In this document: positions 9,338 through 56,029 of the stretch, in pieces
Layout: every line of letters starts with the position of its first letter
How positions within the stretch are numbered: the first letter of the stretch is position 1
Assembly: GCF_000027125.1 (NCBI RefSeq)
Contig: NC_017626.1
Direction: 5' to 3' (one strand)
Length of the DNA stretch: 64,000 nt
Origin: Escherichia coli 042
GTDB taxonomy: Bacteria; Pseudomonadota; Gammaproteobacteria; Enterobacterales; Enterobacteriaceae
Made by a program: the position numbers and the translations under genes
The notes under the pieces: model-generated
Database searches by the model: none
The model's input: the letters and a program-made list of their open reading frames with translations, nothing else
Told to the model about the DNA's origin: nothing

Positions 9338-9355
9338 TAGATAAATTTCAGGCAA

Positions 9356-9435
9356 CAAAAAACCCATCAACCTTGAACCGAAATGGCGGGGTTGATGGGC
9401 TCCACAAAATGGGGACATCAAAGAAAAGCAGTGGC
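9356..9435 (-). ncRNA. rybB: sigmaE-dependent small RNA RybB
   Basis: Minus-strand sequence GCCACTGCTTTTCTTTGATGTCCCC...GGTTGATGGGTTTTTT matches the RybB sequence I remember, including the terminator hairpin and U-tract; located between rcdA and ybjL as in K-12. Confidence 0.85.
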
Positions 9436-38493: not shown

Positions 38494-38936
38494 GAAAACC
38501 CAGTCCTTGCAAAGATGAAGTCGAAATGCGCGATGACACACTACTGAAAGCGGAAGGACGAGTAAAGTTGCAATTAAAAGGAAATGTTATGGATAAGGAT
38601 CGTTAGGGTATTCATTTTCATTTAAAGATATTCTTGCGCTTTAATTACAAACCGCACCGGTGTTGGTGGCGTCAAAATCGCCGAGGCGTTCCCTGAAGGC
38701 CGGGGCAGCCCACATGGATGTGGGCTGAGGGCGCGTTTTACAGGGATGTTACCTCGCGCCCGACCCGGTAGCCGCAAGGGATAAGTCGAGGGCACCGCGC
38801 AGCGGCGATTTTGTTCGCCAGAGCCCGGGGGTGCAGGGGGCGGCGGCGATTGGCCGCCCCCTGCGCGCTCCCTGCGCCAGTGACTATATGTGGCTTAACA
38901 CATCAAGGAGCGCAACAGGAAGATGAATCAATATAT

Positions 38937-38969
38937 TTAAAAAAGGCCTGACATTGCGCCAGGCCTTCT
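38937..38969 (-). terminator. rho-independent terminator of aqpZ
   Basis: Hairpin aggcctg...caggcct followed by a T-run on the minus strand. Confidence 0.6.
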
Positions 38970-38976
38970 GCGTTAA

Positions 38977-46888: not shown

Positions 46889-49165
46889 ATGCTCAATCAA
46901 GAACTGGAACTCAGTTTAAATATGGCTTTCGCCAGAGCGCGCGAGCACCGTCATGAGTTTATGACCGTCGAGCACTTGTTACTGGCGCTGCTCAGTAACC
47001 CATCTGCCCGGGAGGCGCTGGAAGCGTGTTCTGTGGATTTGGTTGCGCTCCGTCAGGAACTGGAAGCCTTTATTGAACAAACCACACCCGTTCTGCCTGC
47101 CAGTGAAGAGGAGCGCGACACACAGCCGACGCTGAGTTTTCAGCGTGTACTGCAACGTGCGGTCTTCCATGTCCAGTCCTCCGGTCGCAATGAGGTTACC
47201 GGTGCAAACGTTCTGGTCGCTATCTTTAGCGAACAGGAGTCGCAGGCGGCATATCTGTTGCGTAAACATGAAGTCAGCCGTCTCGATGTGGTGAACTTTA
47301 TCTCTCATGGCACGCGTAAAGACGAGCCGACACAGTCTTCTGATCCTGGCAGCCAGCCAAACAGCGAAGAACAAGCTGGTGGGGAGGAACGTATGGAGAA
47401 TTTCACGACGAACCTGAATCAGCTTGCGCGCGTGGGCGGAATCGACCCACTGATTGGTCGTGAGAAGGAGCTGGAGCGTGCTATTCAGGTTCTCTGCCGT
47501 CGCCGTAAAAACAACCCGCTGCTGGTGGGGGAATCTGGTGTCGGTAAAACCGCGATTGCGGAAGGTCTTGCCTGGCGAATTGTTCAGGGCGATGTGCCGG
47601 AAGTGATGGCTGACTGTACGATTTACTCTCTCGATATCGGTTCTCTGTTAGCGGGCACAAAATATCGCGGCGACTTTGAAAAACGTTTTAAAGCGTTGCT
47701 CAAGCAGCTGGAGCAGGATACTAACAGCATCCTGTTTATTGATGAGATCCACACCATTATCGGTGCGGGTGCAGCCTCTGGTGGCCAGGTCGATGCGGCT
47801 AACCTGATCAAACCGCTGCTCTCCAGCGGTAAAATTCGCGTAATTGGTTCGACAACCTATCAGGAGTTCAGCAACATTTTCGAGAAAGACCGTGCTCTGG
47901 CGCGTCGCTTCCAGAAAATTGATATTACTGAACCGTCGATCGAAGAAACTGTTCAAATCATCAATGGCCTGAAACCGAAGTATGAAGCGCACCACGACGT
48001 GCGTTATACCGCAAAAGCGGTGCGTGCAGCGGTAGAGCTGGCGGTGAAATACATTAACGATCGTCATCTGCCGGATAAAGCCATTGACGTTATCGACGAA
48101 GCGGGCGCTCGCGCACGCCTGATGCCGGTAAGCAAACGCAAGAAAACCGTTAATGTGGCGGATATTGAGTCCGTGGTGGCCCGTATTGCGCGCATTCCAG
48201 AGAAGAGTGTTTCGCAGAGTGACCGCGATACCCTGAAAAACCTCGGCGATCGCCTGAAAATGCTGGTCTTCGGTCAGGATAAAGCCATTGAGGCGCTGAC
48301 TGAAGCCATTAAGATGGCGCGTGCAGGTTTAGGTCACGAACATAAACCGGTCGGTTCGTTCCTGTTTGCAGGCCCTACCGGGGTCGGGAAAACAGAGGTG
48401 ACGGTACAGCTTTCGAAAGCTTTGGGCATTGAGCTTCTGCGCTTTGATATGTCCGAGTATATGGAACGCCATACCGTCAGCCGTCTGATTGGTGCGCCTC
48501 CGGGATACGTTGGTTTTGATCAGGGCGGTTTGCTGACTGATGCGGTCATCAAGCATCCACATGCGGTGCTGCTGCTGGACGAAATCGAGAAAGCGCACCC
48601 GGACGTGTTCAATATTCTGTTGCAGGTGATGGACAACGGTACGCTGACCGATAACAACGGACGCAAAGCGGACTTCCGTAACGTGGTGCTGGTGATGACC
48701 ACCAACGCTGGGGTACGAGAAACTGAGCGTAAATCGATTGGTCTTATCCACCAGGATAACAGCACCGATGCGATGGAAGAGATCAAGAAGATCTTTACGC
48801 CGGAGTTTCGTAACCGTCTCGACAACATTATCTGGTTCGATCATCTCTCCACCGACGTGATCCATCAGGTGGTGGATAAATTCATCGTCGAGTTGCAGGT
48901 TCAGCTGGATCAGAAAGGTGTTTCTCTGGAAGTGAGCCAGGAAGCGCGTAACTGGCTGGCCGAGAAAGGTTACGACCGGGCAATGGGCGCACGTCCGATG
49001 GCGCGTGTCATCCAGGACAACCTGAAAAAACCGCTCGCCAACGAACTGCTGTTTGGTTCGCTGGTGGACGGCGGTCAGGTCACCGTCGCGCTGGATAAAG
49101 AGAAAAATGAGCTGACTTACGGATTCCAGAGTGCACAAAAGCACAAGGCGGAAGCAGCGCATTAA
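46889..49165 (+). CDS. clpA: ATP-dependent Clp protease ATPase subunit ClpA
   Basis: Two AAA+ modules ([16 protein letters not shown]); start [11 protein letters not shown]. Confidence 0.95.
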
Positions 49166-49188
49166 TCTAATTGTTAGGTAGGTTGGTG

Positions 49189-49228
49189 AAGTCCGTAATC
49201 TCGAAAGAGGTTACGGACTTTTTGTTTG
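49189..49228 (+). terminator. rho-independent terminator of clpA
   Basis: 10-bp stem aagtccgtaa/ttacggactt followed by TTTTGTTTG. Confidence 0.7.
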
Positions 49229-49377
49229 TAGGCTGGGGCGGTGAAAACCCTATTTTTGGAGGTGAAGGTAAGTTGTTGATAATTAATGGTGCTGGAAGGT
49301 AAGAATAAAAAAGGGTGGCAGCAGGAAAATGAGATGATTTTGCTTTATTAACAACGAGCTAAACGTGTAGTATTTGA

Positions 49378-49525
49378 GTTCACTGCCGTACAGGCAGCTT
49401 AGAAAGGCAGAAGACAACAGCGCAAAATGGACATATCGTTCACTGCCGTACAGGCAGCTTAGAAATTCGTACTTAACGAACTGTTGCTCCTCTGCTGGTT
49501 CACTGTCGTACAGGCAGATAAAATG
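49378..49525 (+). CRISPR. orphan type I-F CRISPR mini-array: 3 repeats (last degenerate), 2 spacers of 32 nt
   Basis: Two exact copies of the 28-nt repeat GTTCACTGCCGTACAGGCAGCTTAGAAA plus a degenerate terminal copy; AT-rich leader upstream; no cas genes in the window. Confidence 0.88.
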
Positions 49526-49703
49526 CGAAAAAAGCTCGTACTTTCGTACGCGCTTTTCTTTAAATATGACGGTGAGGGGGGATTGACTCGCTTCGCTCGC
49601 CCTGCGGGCAGCCCGCTCACTGCGTTCACGGTCTGTCCAACTGGCTATCGCCAGTTGTCGCCCCCCGGTAGGGGCTTCTCATCCCCCCTGGAGTGCAATA
49701 TGC

Positions 49704-49737
49704 GAAAAAAAAGCTCGCACTTTCGTACGAGCTCTTC
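49704..49737 (-). terminator. rho-independent terminator of serW
   Basis: Hairpin gagctcgtacgaaagtgcgagct followed by a T8 tract on the minus strand. Confidence 0.7.
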
Positions 49738-49745
49738 TTTGAATA

Positions 49746-49833
49746 TGGCGGTGAGGGGGGGATTCGAACCCCCGATACGTTGCCGTATACACACTTTCCA
49801 GGCGTGCTCCTTCAGCCACTCGGACACCTCACC
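49746..49833 (-). tRNA. serW: tRNA-Ser (88 nt, long variable arm)
   Basis: Minus strand reads GGTGAGGTGTCCGAGTGGCTGAAGGAGCACGCCTGGAAAGTGTGTATACGGCAACGTATCGGGGGTTCGAATCCCCCCCTCACCGCCA. Confidence 0.93.
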
Positions 49834-50086
49834 AAATTGTTTTGCTGCCAAACCTCATGGGTGGCAACGGGGCGCTACTATAGGGAGTTGGAGTAAAACG
49901 GTCAAGAAGAATTTTAATGATAATTATTGTTTGCTCATACTGTAAACAAGTTGTGCAGTATATCTACATCGAGACAAGTTATGGACTTATACTTCCAAAG
50001 TACTTCATACATATCACAAAATAAAAAGGCCGGTTAAACCGACCTTTTACTCGTTCTTTCTCTTCGCCCATCAGGCGGTAAAACAA

Positions 50087-50308
<222 letters not shown>

Positions 50309-50589
50309 ATCCTCTGGGGTATCACTACCGTAATTTGAACCGGCAAGATAATGCCGAAGTTCTGTAAATAAGTAAAGATTTGCGCGCTAAATCGCAACAA
50401 ACAGGTTCGGCACATTACTCCGAAAACACACGGCTAAGCCGCACCAAAAGCGCAACGTATAAGGGAGCGGTGAGATAAACGATGGGCGTTACCTGACGCG
50501 AAAAATTCCTTATCGGCAGCGGGGTAATGAGCGTAACCAACTCTGCGACCGCAATTATAACACTCTGGGGAGAAATGTGCCGAAAACAT

Positions 50590-51294
50590 TCATTCTTGTG
50601 GTGAAAACAAGCACCGTGGTACCCAGAAATTATTCGGCAATCGTCCGAGGCGCATTTGGTTGAGATAATTCAGATAATCCCGGCGGGGAATTTCGAAGGC
50701 ACCAAGCGACGCTGTGTGATCGTTAAGTACCTGGCAGTCGATAAGTTTACCGCCATGACCAAGAAATTCCTCACAGAATACCAGAAGCGCCGTTTTAGAC
50801 GCATTTTCCATCCGGCTGAACATGGACTCGCCACAAAATAGCGTTCCCTGGGCCACGCCGTACATACCGCCGACAAGCTCATCTTCACGCCAGACTTCAA
50901 TAGAGTGAGCATGACCGAGTTCGTGAAGGCGATGGTAGGCTTCGACCACGCCACGCGTGATCCAGGTTCCTTCTTCGCGATCGCTGGCACAGCCTTCAAT
51001 GACCTGACCAAAAGCGTAATTCATCGTGACTCGATAGGGCGAGCGTTTATGAAATCGCTTCATACTACGGCTGATATGCAGTGATTCTGGCCATAGCACC
51101 GCGCGGGGATCGGGCGACCACCAGAGGATGGGGTCGCCTGGAGAAAACCACGGAAAAATACCACGCTGGTAAGCCATTAACAGGCGCGCAGGGCTAAGAT
51201 CGCCCCCCAGTGCCAGCAGGCCGTTAGGCTCACGTAATGCGCCTTCCGGGGAAGGGAAGGCTATTGAATGGCGAGAAAGCTGAACCAGGCGCAT
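50590..51294 (-). CDS. aat: leucyl/phenylalanyl-tRNA--protein transferase
   Basis: 234-aa ORF; synteny and recognised sequence. Confidence 0.9.
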
Positions 51295-51335
51295 GACCGC
51301 AAAACTCCACGCAAGTCGGATCGTTCAATAATAGC

Positions 51336-53057
51336 TTACAAACCCTGCTTGAACTGGTAATAACGCCCCTGTCTGGCAAGCAGTTCTGCGTGAGTACCTT
51401 GCTCAATAATTTGCCCGTTGTCCATCACTATTATTTGTTGGAAACGAGAGAGTCCGCGAAGTCGATGGGTGACCATTAACACCGTTTTCTCATGCATCAT
51501 TTCTGCAAGCAATTCAAGGATCTGACTTTCGGTTGTGGCATCTAAGCCTTCTGTAGGTTCATCCAGCAATACCAGCGGCGCATCATGTAACAGCGCACGG
51601 GCGATAGCCAGACGGCGCAGTTCACCACCGGAGAGCTGGCGTCCGCCTTCACCCAACCAACTGTTGAGACCTGCATCCTCGAGCAGCTTCTCCAGACCAA
51701 CGCGACGCAAGATCTCCGCCAGAGCCTCATCACTACTGCCAGGTGAGGCGAGTAACAGATTATCACGCAGCGTGGCGCTAAACAGATGCACTCGCTGAGG
51801 AACAACGCTGATGGTCTGTCGTAGAGCCGCTTCATTCAGGCTGGCTATGGGGCTATCGTTAAGCAAAATCTTGCCTTGTTGCGGGTCCCATGCGCGGGTC
51901 AGCAGTTGTAACAGTGTTGATTTGCCGCATCCGGTTCGCCCGAGAATCGCTATATGTTCCCCGGCGTTTACCTGAAGAGAAATCCCTTTAAGTGCCTGTT
52001 GGGATTGCTCCGGATAAGTGAATTGAACATCCCGTAACGTCAGCGAAACGCGATCGGCAACACGAGTTTGGGTATCAGGGAAGGTGACTTCCGGTTTTTG
52101 ATCCGTTAAGTCAGTGATCCGAACGGCAGAGGCAATGACTTGCCCCAGATGCTGAAATGCACCCGTTACTGGTGCCAGTGCTTCAAACGCGGCTAACGCG
52201 CAGAAGACAAACAGGGCAATTAACGCGCCGGGTTGAGCATTGCCGCCAACGCCGCCAGACGCCATCCACAGCATCAGGATCACCGCTAACGCGCCAATGA
52301 GCAGCATTATCGCTTGCGACAATGCGGTGAGTTCAGATTGACGACGTTGCGCTTCCAGCCACTGAATTTCGGTATTCTCTAACTGCGTGCGATAACGATC
52401 GCTGGCACCAAAAATGGTCAGCTCAGCTTGCCCTTGCAGCCAGGCCGTCAGTTGTTGGCGATACTGCCCGCGAAGATGAGTCAGATTTTGCCCGGTGCTT
52501 TTTCCCGCACGATAAAACAGTGGTGGCATAAGGAAAAGCGTCAGTAACATAATGCCGCCCAGCGTAAAGGCGAGGGTGAAATCAAGGAAACTTAACCCGA
52601 TTGTCACCACCATAATCACCACAAAAGCGCCCACCAGCGGCGAGATAACGCGCAGGTAAAGATGATCGAGCGTATCAACATCCGCCACCACGCGGTTGAG
52701 CAATTCGCCCTGACGATAGCGCGCCAGTCCTGCAGGGGAGAGGGGCAGCAATTTGCTGAAGGTATAAATGCGCAGATGCTGCAACACGCGGAAAGTCGCG
52801 TCGTGACTTACCAGACGTTCAAAATAGCGCCCGGCAGTACGGGTGATTGCTGCACCACGCACGCCCGCAGCGGGTAGCATATAGTTGAAGCTGTACAGTC
52901 CGGCAACCCCCGCTACCGCTGAGGCCGAGAGGAACCAGCCGGAAAGTGTCAACAGACCGATACTGGCGAGCAGCGTGACAATTGCCAGCACAATACCAAG
53001 ACTTAACATCCATTTATGACGTTTATACAGTGCCAGATAGGGTAGCAAAGCGCGCAT
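51336..53057 (-). CDS. cydC: glutathione/cysteine ABC exporter subunit CydC
   Basis: TM domain plus ABC ATPase (GRTGCGKST). Confidence 0.92.
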   Translation of the reverse strand: MRALLPYLALYKRHKWMLSLGIVLAIVTLLASIGLLTLSGWFLSASAVAGVAGLYSFNYMLPAAGVRGAAITRTAGRYFERLVSHDATFRVLQHLRIYTFSKLLPLSPAGLARYRQGELLNRVVADVDTLDHLYLRVISPLVGAFVVIMVVTIGLSFLDFTLAFTLGGIMLLTLFLMPPLFYRAGKSTGQNLTHLRGQYRQQLTAWLQGQAELTIFGASDRYRTQLENTEIQWLEAQRRQSELTALSQAIMLLIGALAVILMLWMASGGVGGNAQPGALIALFVFCALAAFEALAPVTGAFQHLGQVIASAVRITDLTDQKPEVTFPDTQTRVADRVSLTLRDVQFTYPEQSQQALKGISLQVNAGEHIAILGRTGCGKSTLLQLLTRAWDPQQGKILLNDSPIASLNEAALRQTISVVPQRVHLFSATLRDNLLLASPGSSDEALAEILRRVGLEKLLEDAGLNSWLGEGGRQLSGGELRRLAIARALLHDAPLVLLDEPTEGLDATTESQILELLAEMMHEKTVLMVTHRLRGLSRFQQIIVMDNGQIIEQGTHAELLARQGRYYQFKQGL

Positions 53058-54824
53058 TTAAATCTCCTCCTGACGATGGGCCAGTAATGTGGCGAATGGG
53101 CCACCAGCCACACTTAATTCCGCGTAACGTCCTTGCTCAATAATCTGACCATCCTGCATTACCCAAATGACATCCCAGTCAGCAAGATCTTCTAACTGGT
53201 GGGTGACCATTAACGTTGTCTGGCGCAGAGAGGCGGCATTAAGCGCCTCCATTACGCGCTGTTCACTGTGAGCATCAAGGCTGGCAGCGGGTTCATCCAA
53301 CAGTAATAGCGAACAGGGATTTAGTAATGCTCGGGCCACCGCCACGCGCTGTGCCTGCCCCACGGAAAGGCGGGCAGCCTGGTCGCCAACAGGCGTATCA
53401 ACGCCTTGTGGCAGGAGCGGTAGAAACTCACTGACCCAGGCGTTATCCAGCGCTGTTTGTAACTCGTGTTCGCTGGCATCAGGTCGTGCCAGTAGTACGT
53501 TATCCCGTAGTGTTGCTGCCGGTAATTGTGGGTTTTGCCCAACCCAGGAGAGATGTTTACGCCATGATTCCGGTGATAAATCGCGTAATTCTATCCCGTT
53601 GATTCGTAGCGATCCCTGATATGAGAGAAAACCAGAAAGCGCGTTCAGCAGTGAGCTTTTACCTGAACCGCTGCGACCAACCAACACTGCACGTTGGCCT
53701 GCTGGCAAAGTAAAGTTCAGCGGTCCAGCCAGCGTTTTACCTTCTGGTGATGTAATAAACAGATCCTCGGCTTCAATGGTCACCGGATCGGTTGATGCTA
53801 ATTCCGCCTCACCACGTTGCGGATGGGCGAGCGGGGTTTCCATAAACGTTTTCAGACTGTCAGCTGCGCCAACAGCCTGGGCTTTAGCATGATAAAACGT
53901 ACCGAGATCGCGTAATGGCTGGAAAAACTCCGGCGCAAGGATCAGGGCCAGAAAACCCGCAGCCAGCGTCACGCCAGTATCATAGTGACCAAAATCCAGC
54001 TCGCCGAGATAGGAAAAACCAAAGTAGACCGCCACCAGAGCAATTGACAGCGAGGTAAAAAATTCGAGAATGCCGGAGGATAAAAACGCCAGCCGTAGCA
54101 CTTCCATTGTCCGTTGGCGGAAATCTTCCGAAGCAGAACGAATACTTTCAATTTCAGCTTCACCACGACCAAAAATACGCAATGTTTCCATGCCGCGCAG
54201 GCGATCGAGAAAATGCCCACTTAAGCGAGCAAGAGCGAGAAAGTTACGTCGGTTAGCATCGGCAGCCCCCATTCCAACCAGCGCCATAAACAACGGAATT
54301 AACGGAGCAGTGCCCAGCAGAATGAGCGCCGCAGCCCAGTTAGAGGGGAAGATAGCCACCACAATCAGCAACGGCACCGACACTGCCAGCGCCATTTGCG
54401 GCAGGTAGCGTGCATAGTAATCATGCATATCGTCAATTTGCTCGAGTACCAGCGTCGCCCAGCTCCCCGCCGGTTTACCCTGAATCCACGCTGGCCCTGC
54501 TTGTTGCAGACGGTCGAGAACCTGACGGCGGATGGCAAAGCGGATATGCTGCCCGGCGTGATAACCCACCCGTTCGCGTAACCAGACCACCCATGCGCGC
54601 AGTACAAAGGTCAGAACCAGTAACGTAAAGGGAAGCAGCAGGGCTTCACGGGGAATATTCTCCATAATCATATGTTGCAGAATTCGCGCCATGAACCAGG
54701 CCTGGGCAATGATCAATATGCCGCTCACAAAGCCCAGCAGACGAGAAATATTCAGCCAACGTTGGGAGATGACGCTTTGCTGTTTTAACCAGCGGGTTAA
54801 CTCTTTTTGACGGGATTTATTCAT
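53058..54824 (-). CDS. cydD: glutathione/cysteine ABC exporter subunit CydD
   Basis: TM domain plus ABC ATPase (GRSGSGKSS); abuts cydC. Confidence 0.92.
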   Translation of the reverse strand: MNKSRQKELTRWLKQQSVISQRWLNISRLLGFVSGILIIAQAWFMARILQHMIMENIPREALLLPFTLLVLTFVLRAWVVWLRERVGYHAGQHIRFAIRRQVLDRLQQAGPAWIQGKPAGSWATLVLEQIDDMHDYYARYLPQMALAVSVPLLIVVAIFPSNWAAALILLGTAPLIPLFMALVGMGAADANRRNFLALARLSGHFLDRLRGMETLRIFGRGEAEIESIRSASEDFRQRTMEVLRLAFLSSGILEFFTSLSIALVAVYFGFSYLGELDFGHYDTGVTLAAGFLALILAPEFFQPLRDLGTFYHAKAQAVGAADSLKTFMETPLAHPQRGEAELASTDPVTIEAEDLFITSPEGKTLAGPLNFTLPAGQRAVLVGRSGSGKSSLLNALSGFLSYQGSLRINGIELRDLSPESWRKHLSWVGQNPQLPAATLRDNVLLARPDASEHELQTALDNAWVSEFLPLLPQGVDTPVGDQAARLSVGQAQRVAVARALLNPCSLLLLDEPAASLDAHSEQRVMEALNAASLRQTTLMVTHQLEDLADWDVIWVMQDGQIIEQGRYAELSVAGGPFATLLAHRQEEI

Positions 54825-54946
54825 TGCACGCTTAGCAGGTGAGTTATCAGAATTATTTGCAGAGCAATGTTACAACGAGGAAAAAATAAAGGCGACCCAT
54901 AGTCGCATGGTGTCGCCTTCTTTACTTTTGTTACTGATTTGTAAAA

Positions 54947-56029
<1,083 letters not shown>

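Follow-up and report, generated by a model that had tools for sequence, protein, structure and literature searches.

We judge, with a probability of roughly 0.8, that the short CRISPR array located between clpA and serW in the window (i.e. the whole analysed stretch of 64,000 nucleotides) is the type I-F orphan array found beside clpA in most E. coli, and that it guards the cell against incoming I-F cas operons. An array of this kind is an already described element, known as an "anti-CRISPR" or "anti-cas" array, and is ordinary for E. coli; in the window we have found the location between clpA and serW and spacers that match I-F cas genes, and across complete E. coli genomes the spacers do not coexist with their targets. 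The annotation that we consider correct is that of an orphan I-F anti-cas array, rather than that of a phage or plasmid record or of a hypothetical protein.

The array consists of three 28-nt repeats, two of them exact and the third a degenerate terminal copy, which enclose two 32-nt spacers (Table 1), with both start-to-start distances of the repeats equal to 60 nt. A sequence-only reading of this DNA, made before our analysis, had described the same layout at positions 49378-49525, and both its repeats and the letters of its two spacers have proved exact. The two exact repeats match 27 of the 28 consensus positions of the Rfam family RF01317 (CRISPR-DR4, gathering score 35), as is expected from the type I-F assignment that the same reading had made, and the terminal repeat scores 25.4 bits against this family; zero matches to the repeat occurred in any of the dinucleotide shuffles of the window. 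The length of the spacers is also that of 87% of newly acquired I-F spacers (PMC4117759).

Table 1. Positions of the array and of its flanking features in the window.
Feature	Position	Strand	Description
clpA	46889-49165	+	99.6% identical to E. coli clpA; start taken from the 2,277-bp annotated clpA of other genomes
clpA terminator hairpin	49188-49221		3' of clpA
CRISPR leader	49222-49377	+	between clpA terminator and repeat 1
Repeat 1	49378-49405	+	exact I-F repeat GTTCACTGCCGTACAGGCAGCTTAGAAA; CRISPR-DR4, 50.1 bits
Spacer 1	49406-49437	+	GGCAGAAGACAACAGCGCAAAATGGACATATC; 32 nt, leader-proximal, anti-csy2
Repeat 2	49438-49465	+	exact copy of GTTCACTGCCGTACAGGCAGCTTAGAAA; CRISPR-DR4, 50.1 bits
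Spacer 2	49466-49497	+	TTCGTACTTAACGAACTGTTGCTCCTCTGCTG; 32 nt, anti-cas3f
Terminal repeat	49498-49525	+	GTTCACTGTCGTACAGGCAGATAAAATG; 22/28 identical to the exact repeat
Hairpin with T-runs on both strands	49530-49561	both	terminator-like sites at 49537-49550 on both strands
serW, tRNA-Ser(GGA)	49746-49833	-	
infA	50087-50305	-	beyond serW

The exact repeat is predicted to fold into a hairpin with a 5-bp stem and a 5-nt loop, i.e. the form that is cleaved by Cas6f (-8.6 kcal/mol), and the predicted hairpin is retained in the terminal repeat (-5.9 kcal/mol), where one pair becomes G-U through the change of C9 to U. Five of the six mismatches of the terminal repeat are located within its last 8 nt: the first 20 nt, from which the spacer-2 crRNA would take its 3' hairpin, are retained, while the last 8 nt are replaced, and the end of the repeat (49520-49533) resembles the serW-flank sequence at 49697-49710. 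Since these last 8 nt would be merely the 5' handle of a crRNA that does not exist, both spacers could give complete crRNAs, the Cas6f hairpin being kept in the terminal repeat. Judged by its repeat, spacing, predicted hairpin, PAM and leader, the window array is a type I-F CRISPR array; spacer 1 is located at the leader end and is therefore the newer of the two spacers, with spacer 2 being the older.

The surrounding DNA is E. coli chromosome, collinear with that of strain N3 over 49 kb, and the array is located between clpA and serW, as the sequence-only reading had placed it. The leader has an A+T content of 61.5%, against 49% for the whole window, and is 84-87% identical over 212 nt to the leaders of the clpA-side arrays of two I-F-positive strains; the junction between leader and repeat is identical to that of the I-F-positive strains, and the final 40 nt before repeat 1 are nearly invariant across 10 loci. 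A scan of the plus strand of the leader for the sigma-70 consensus found no site, so the expression of the window array rests on the literature; a weak promoter candidate can be picked out by eye (TTATTA at 49345-49350, a 17-nt interval, and TAGTAT at 49368-49373). At the other end of the array, the hairpin at 49530-49561 is likely, from its sequence, to be a two-way terminator between the array transcript on the plus strand and the serW/RtT-like transcript on the minus strand; a 54-nt stretch that covers it (49528-49581) is 91% identical to 49707-49760, being a copy of the serW terminator together with the 3' end of the tRNA.

The array is separated from serW by a 179-nt unit (49526-49705), where the copy of the serW terminator is followed by an RtT-like match on the minus strand (49567-49702; 33.6 bits, below the Rfam gathering score of 45); under the matches to 49526-49705 in several E. 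coli genomes, RefSeq annotates an "RtT sRNA". The unit is present in strain N3 and is implied by the 220-nt gap before serW in strains 19KM1831 and WP8-S17; it is absent in K-12, O157 and SCAID URN1, where the gap between array and serW is approximately 43 nt.

No I-F cas gene has been found in the 64-kb window: searches with six I-F Cas proteins (tblastn) and with the whole operon (blastn) matched the two spacers alone, in agreement with the sequence-only reading. The window is thus without a complete type I-F CRISPR-Cas system, with cas1f, cas3f (cas2-3), csy1, csy2, csy3 and cas6f all missing. In I-F-positive strains, the order at this site is clpA, array, cas1f-cas3f-csy1-csy2-csy3-cas6f, serW, second array and infA; the same order of flanking genes and the same leader-repeat junction confirm that this is where the I-F system of E. 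coli resides on the chromosome, as the sequence-only reading had stated. The alignment with the I-F locus of strain 504838 (L003) delimits the missing part: L003 1-1649 corresponds to window 47817-49465, L003 10962-11190 to window 49705-49933, and L003 12170-18032 to window 50023-55885, so that the window lacks the infA-side array as well as the entire cas operon, and synteny picks up again at serW and at infA.

The I-F loci of 504838 and GN02100 share with the window the chromosomal site, the repeat, the leader-repeat junction and the orientation of the clpA-side array, and the window array corresponds, by this sequence comparison, to the array on the clpA side in I-F-positive strains. The complete loci differ from it in the number of clpA-side spacers, which is 8 in GN02100 (a count derived from the 508-bp annotated span of the array) and 13 in 504838, against two in the window, and in the end of the terminal repeat, which in the window is ATAAAATG, fused to the serW flank, and in 504838 is TATTCACA. 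In GN02100, csy2 (L002 20746-21669) has an internal stop and a pseudogene annotation; decay is thus under way in some of the cas-bearing loci.

Both spacers match genes of this operon. Spacer 1 is identical at 32 of 32 positions to csy2 of strain Rb-50, at 31 of 32 to csy2 of 504838 (L003 9001-9032, plus strand; mismatch at position 28) and at 28 of 32 to csy2 of GN02100; spacer 2 is identical at 32 of 32 positions to cas3f of 504838 (L003 5044-5075, minus strand) and of other strains, and at 31 of 32 to cas3f of GN02100, so that a perfect extant target allele exists for each spacer. For both spacers and in both sampled I-F operons, 504838 and GN02100 (the two in which the PAM of spacer 1 has been read), the protospacer is immediately preceded by 5'-CC on the spacer-identical strand, which is the I-F PAM, equivalent to protospacer-GG-3' on the target strand (PMC4117759). 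The two protospacers are located on opposite strands, 3.9 kb apart. Targets in cas genes next to the correct PAM indicate that genuine I-F adaptation machinery took the spacers from an I-F cas operon, rather than from a phage or an ordinary plasmid.

The sequence-only reading had proposed instead that the array is a relic whose spacers could reveal past invaders and which is mainly of use as a strain marker. Plasmid matches have been reported for the arrays of I-F-positive E. coli (PMC2886076), and the rarity of the csy2 spacer, found as an array spacer in only one of the 5,426 complete E. coli genomes searched, means that it marks a lineage; nonetheless, we regard a record of phage or plasmid invaders as very improbable, given the perfect matches of both spacers in chromosomal I-F cas genes next to a CC PAM. 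A query of the two joined spacers against 50,697 phage records returned only chance-level matches of 22-24 nt (E of about 2), and the same query against 72,556 plasmid records returned just two oversized records, which match spacer 2 only; no true protospacer was found in either collection, and a phage or plasmid origin of the two spacers was rejected. The two records, CP088669.1 (730 kb) and NZ_CP141089.1 (4.9 Mb), are typed as non-mobilizable and, judged by size and typing, are probably chromosomal sequence filed as plasmids. The claim that the spacer content is strain-informative stands insofar as the csy2 spacer is shared with a single other genome, that of strain N3, and makes a minor lineage marker; with only two spacers it does not go far, and Touchon and Rocha judge CRISPRs of this kind to be poor epidemiological markers (PMC2886076).

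Within the window, neither spacer has a second match at up to 9 mismatches, and the spacers are thus not copies of local chromosomal sequence; had they been such copies, this would have spoken against the sequence-only reading by its own test. The spacers do copy the DNA that fills the clpA-serW locus in other strains, though they are not local copies in the window genome. Across the complete genomes, spacer 1 or its target occurs in 240 and spacer 2 or its target in 414 (either in cas3f or in an orphan array), in exactly one place per genome, which means that spacer and target are never found in the same genome; the places that match are orphan arrays or csy2/cas3f and nothing else. The array resembles self-targeting CRISPR spacers in that its spacers derive from chromosomal genes of the same species, but differs from them in that the target is missing from the spacer-carrying genome, so there is no ongoing autoimmunity. 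The same counts bear on another explanation, in which the array would be a Cas-independent regulatory RNA that pairs in antisense with a host transcript: regulatory roles have been proposed for orphan arrays of Listeria (PMC8616872), and nothing specific to this array favours such a role, which we consider the least probable of all explanations, with no other match of the spacers in the window at up to 9 mismatches and no second matching place in any of the 414 and 240 genomes.

The census of the 5,426 complete E. coli genomes places the window array in the common state of the species. The I-F gene csy3 occurs in 241 genomes, and an orphan-type junction, i.e. a terminal repeat fused to the serW flank, in 5,177 (approximately 95%), amounting to 5,418 of the 5,426 as the sum of two separate counts. 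The uncommon part of the window array is its leader-proximal csy2 spacer. The array of N3 is identical to that of the window at 148 of 148 positions, and this identity extends over a 370-nt block that takes in the RtT-like unit as well; since the surrounding block is equally identical, we have drawn no conclusion from this identity on selection acting on the array.

The same leader and the same ...CAGATAAAATG end of the terminal repeat recur in all of seven other orphan arrays, taken from across the range of similarity (N3, 19KM1831, WP8-S17, K-12 BW25113, O157:H7, 67-1 and SCAID URN1), and for 10 of their 11 spacers the match is to cas1f, cas3f or csy2, next to a CC PAM. The exception is the leader-proximal spacer of SCAID URN1 (GCACACGTCGAGCTGGTGGGGATTAATGCTGG, L009 847-878), for which neither of the two sampled I-F loci holds a match at up to 9 mismatches. 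In WP8-S17-ESBL-12 (L005 547-638), the cas3f spacer TCGACGGGGTGCGGTAAAACCTTTGCGAACGC occurs twice in tandem at the leader end, and this is a duplication of a repeat-spacer unit, not a new acquisition.

The orphan arrays of K-12 and O157:H7 are similar to that of the window in locus and in type of terminal repeat, and carry a single spacer against an I-F cas gene (cas1f) with a CC PAM; they differ in having only this cas1f spacer, which departs from the sampled allele at 2-3 positions, and approximately 43 nt between array and serW, whereas both spacers of the window have perfect extant targets and the 179-nt RtT-like unit stands before serW. Lineages that have in common spacer 2, the variant of the terminal repeat and the junction also differ at the leader-proximal side, where the window has the csy2 spacer and 19KM1831 has a cas3f and a cas1f spacer. 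The alignment of the leaders of L002-L009 with window 49166-49377 has revealed haplotypes that do not split orphan from cas-bearing loci: the leader of the K-12 orphan array is identical over 212 nt to that of I-F-positive 504838, and the leader of 67-1 is identical too; the leader of the SCAID URN1 orphan array is nearly identical to that of I-F-positive GN02100; a third haplotype is common to the window, 19KM1831 and WP8-S17, with N3 being close to it. Such mixing of leader sequences suggests that the cas operon has been lost or gained repeatedly, or that the locus has recombined, and, together with the different leader-proximal spacers, points to repeated traffic between the orphan and the cas-bearing states.

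The published descriptions of orphan arrays agree with these features. Touchon and Rocha (2010) described cas-less arrays at the clpA-side site whose only spacers are ones that match Cas1, Cas3 and Csy2, and proposed for these arrays a role in blocking I-F systems that enter the cell (PMC2886076). The window array has in common with the anti-cas orphan array of that study and of Almendros et al. (2016) the clpA-serW site, the 28-nt repeat, the leader, the modified terminal repeat, the lack of I-F cas genes and the matches of both spacers to I-F cas genes with a CC PAM, and differs in its spacer combination alone, csy2 followed by cas3f, which is found in one other complete genome (N3). Seven cas-matching spacers are listed by Touchon and Rocha (PMC2886076), and a search that covered the supplements of their article and a full-text search did not find the sequences of the window spacers; the articles of Almendros et al. 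(2016) and Diez-Villasenor et al. (2010) lay outside this search. The naming also differs between groups: Touchon and Rocha use CRISPR3 for the ubiquitous array on the clpA side and CRISPR4 for the one separated by serW (PMC2886076), while the Mojica group calls the orphan array CRISPR4.

According to a review of the Mojica group (PMC8616872), Almendros et al. (2016; Nat Microbiol 1:16081) found, in other strains, that native orphan arrays are constitutively expressed, that they interfere with plasmids carrying I-F cas genes and that they trigger primed spacer acquisition; expression, interference and priming are thus reported for comparable arrays, and we extend them to the window array by analogy with this published work. 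The name of a relic, given by the sequence-only reading, holds for the orphan state of the array in the window but tells half the story, the literature, as rendered by the review, describing a constitutively expressed anti-cas device.

On these grounds, the array would be transcribed from its leader, as the literature leads us to expect, and would be silent in effect as long as the cell is without Cas proteins. If the DNA of an I-F cas operon enters, the incoming Cas6f would cut the transcript after each repeat hairpin, and both crRNAs could form, the terminal repeat keeping its hairpin; the incoming Csy complex would load the crRNAs of the array, and the incoming Cas2-3 would degrade the cas genes that encode Cas2-3 and Csy themselves. 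The cell would provide the guides, and the invader would provide the proteins that destroy the invader. Primed adaptation could put further cas-derived spacers at the leader end: spacer 2 (cas3f), common to other lineages, would be the older guard, and spacer 1 (csy2) a later addition in the lineage of the window, plausibly by priming from the cas3f spacer.

The arrangement of the two protospacers is compatible with an origin of spacer 1 by priming but not diagnostic of it, since I-F priming takes spacers from both strands and from both sides of the primed site (PMC4117759) and the geometry of the protospacers does not discriminate between origins. We put forward, tentatively and as the less probable side of the question, that the csy2 spacer is a natural record of an aborted invasion that took place after the loss of the cas genes: an I-F operon with an Rb-50-like csy2 allele would have entered, the resident cas3f crRNA would have turned the operon on itself, and the csy2 spacer would have been gained by priming ahead of the operon's destruction. 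If this is true, a comparison of the leader-proximal spacers of approximately 5,000 orphan arrays would provide a field record of the frequency with which E. coli rejects I-F systems.

The main competitor of the anti-cas reading is quoted by Touchon and Rocha (PMC2886076) from Diez-Villasenor et al. (2010), who hypothesize that the I-F system of an ancestor took spacers from its own cas genes, that the deletion of the cas operon was then favoured, and that the short array persists without function as a scar of autoimmunity. A neutral self-targeting scar would look the same in sequence as an anti-cas array, and several observations agree with it: the absence of cas genes from the 64-kb window, the tiny size of the array and the fusion of its terminal repeat to serW-flank sequence, which is similar to a deletion endpoint, the lack of a consensus promoter in the leader scan, the 2-4 mismatches between K-12-type cas1f spacers and the extant cas1f allele, which suggest drift, and the leader haplotypes common to orphan and cas-bearing loci (that of K-12 being that of 504838), which are expected if orphan arrays derive from cas-bearing loci. 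Several points speak against an inert scar: the orphan form is found in approximately 95% of the complete genomes, its repeats are exact and its leader-repeat junction hardly varies; moreover, differing leader-proximal cas-derived spacers beside a shared spacer 2 imply either acquisitions after the orphan state was reached or differential loss, Touchon and Rocha give population arguments against the pure inertia of the orphan array (PMC2886076), and expression, interference and priming by native orphan arrays have been published, as related in the review (PMC8616872). We therefore hold an inert scar to be unlikely, albeit a more serious candidate than an invader record; the hypothesis concerns the origin of the array and could be compatible with a present anti-cas role.

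Read as an anti-cas device, the window array provides one more example of the published idea of a cas-less array as a trap against the establishment of its cognate CRISPR-Cas system, an idea that helps to explain the presence of I-F cas genes in merely 4% or so of complete E. coli genomes.

Over the orphan arrays at L004 424-822 and L005 424-882, which are homologous to window positions from approximately 49283 to 49630, the minus strand bears a "hypothetical protein" in RefSeq (WP_012602745.1, WP_077698801.1); this annotation is almost certainly a spurious open reading frame through the repeats. Comparable open reading frames run over the window array at 49374-49586 (plus strand) and at 49283-49417 and 49459-49629 (minus strand).

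Elsewhere in the window, the RybB sRNA is located at 9354-9432 on the minus strand (105 bits against Rfam), and internal repeats occur at 59378-59654, at the position of ftsK. The window and N3 differ at approximately 38.6-39.0 kb (38597-38974), where N3 has an IS110 family transposase between aqpZ and lysO.

An additional element is located in the cas3f-csy1 intergenic region of I-F-positive E. coli (L003 6766-6845 and L002 19118-19207), where two repeat-like copies flank a 25-nt pseudo-spacer (TAGATGTATCTCCGGATACGGACTT) in an antisense, degenerate mini-array, the second copy being identical to the repeat over 18 nt. In its first 14 nt, the pseudo-spacer agrees at 12 of 14 positions with a palindromic site with a 5'-CC PAM that is located approximately 140 nt upstream of the csy1 start codon, and the mini-array resembles the crRNA-like Cas-regulating RNAs that have been reported for types I-B, I-E and V-A (bioRxiv 10.1101/2023.03.10.532045).
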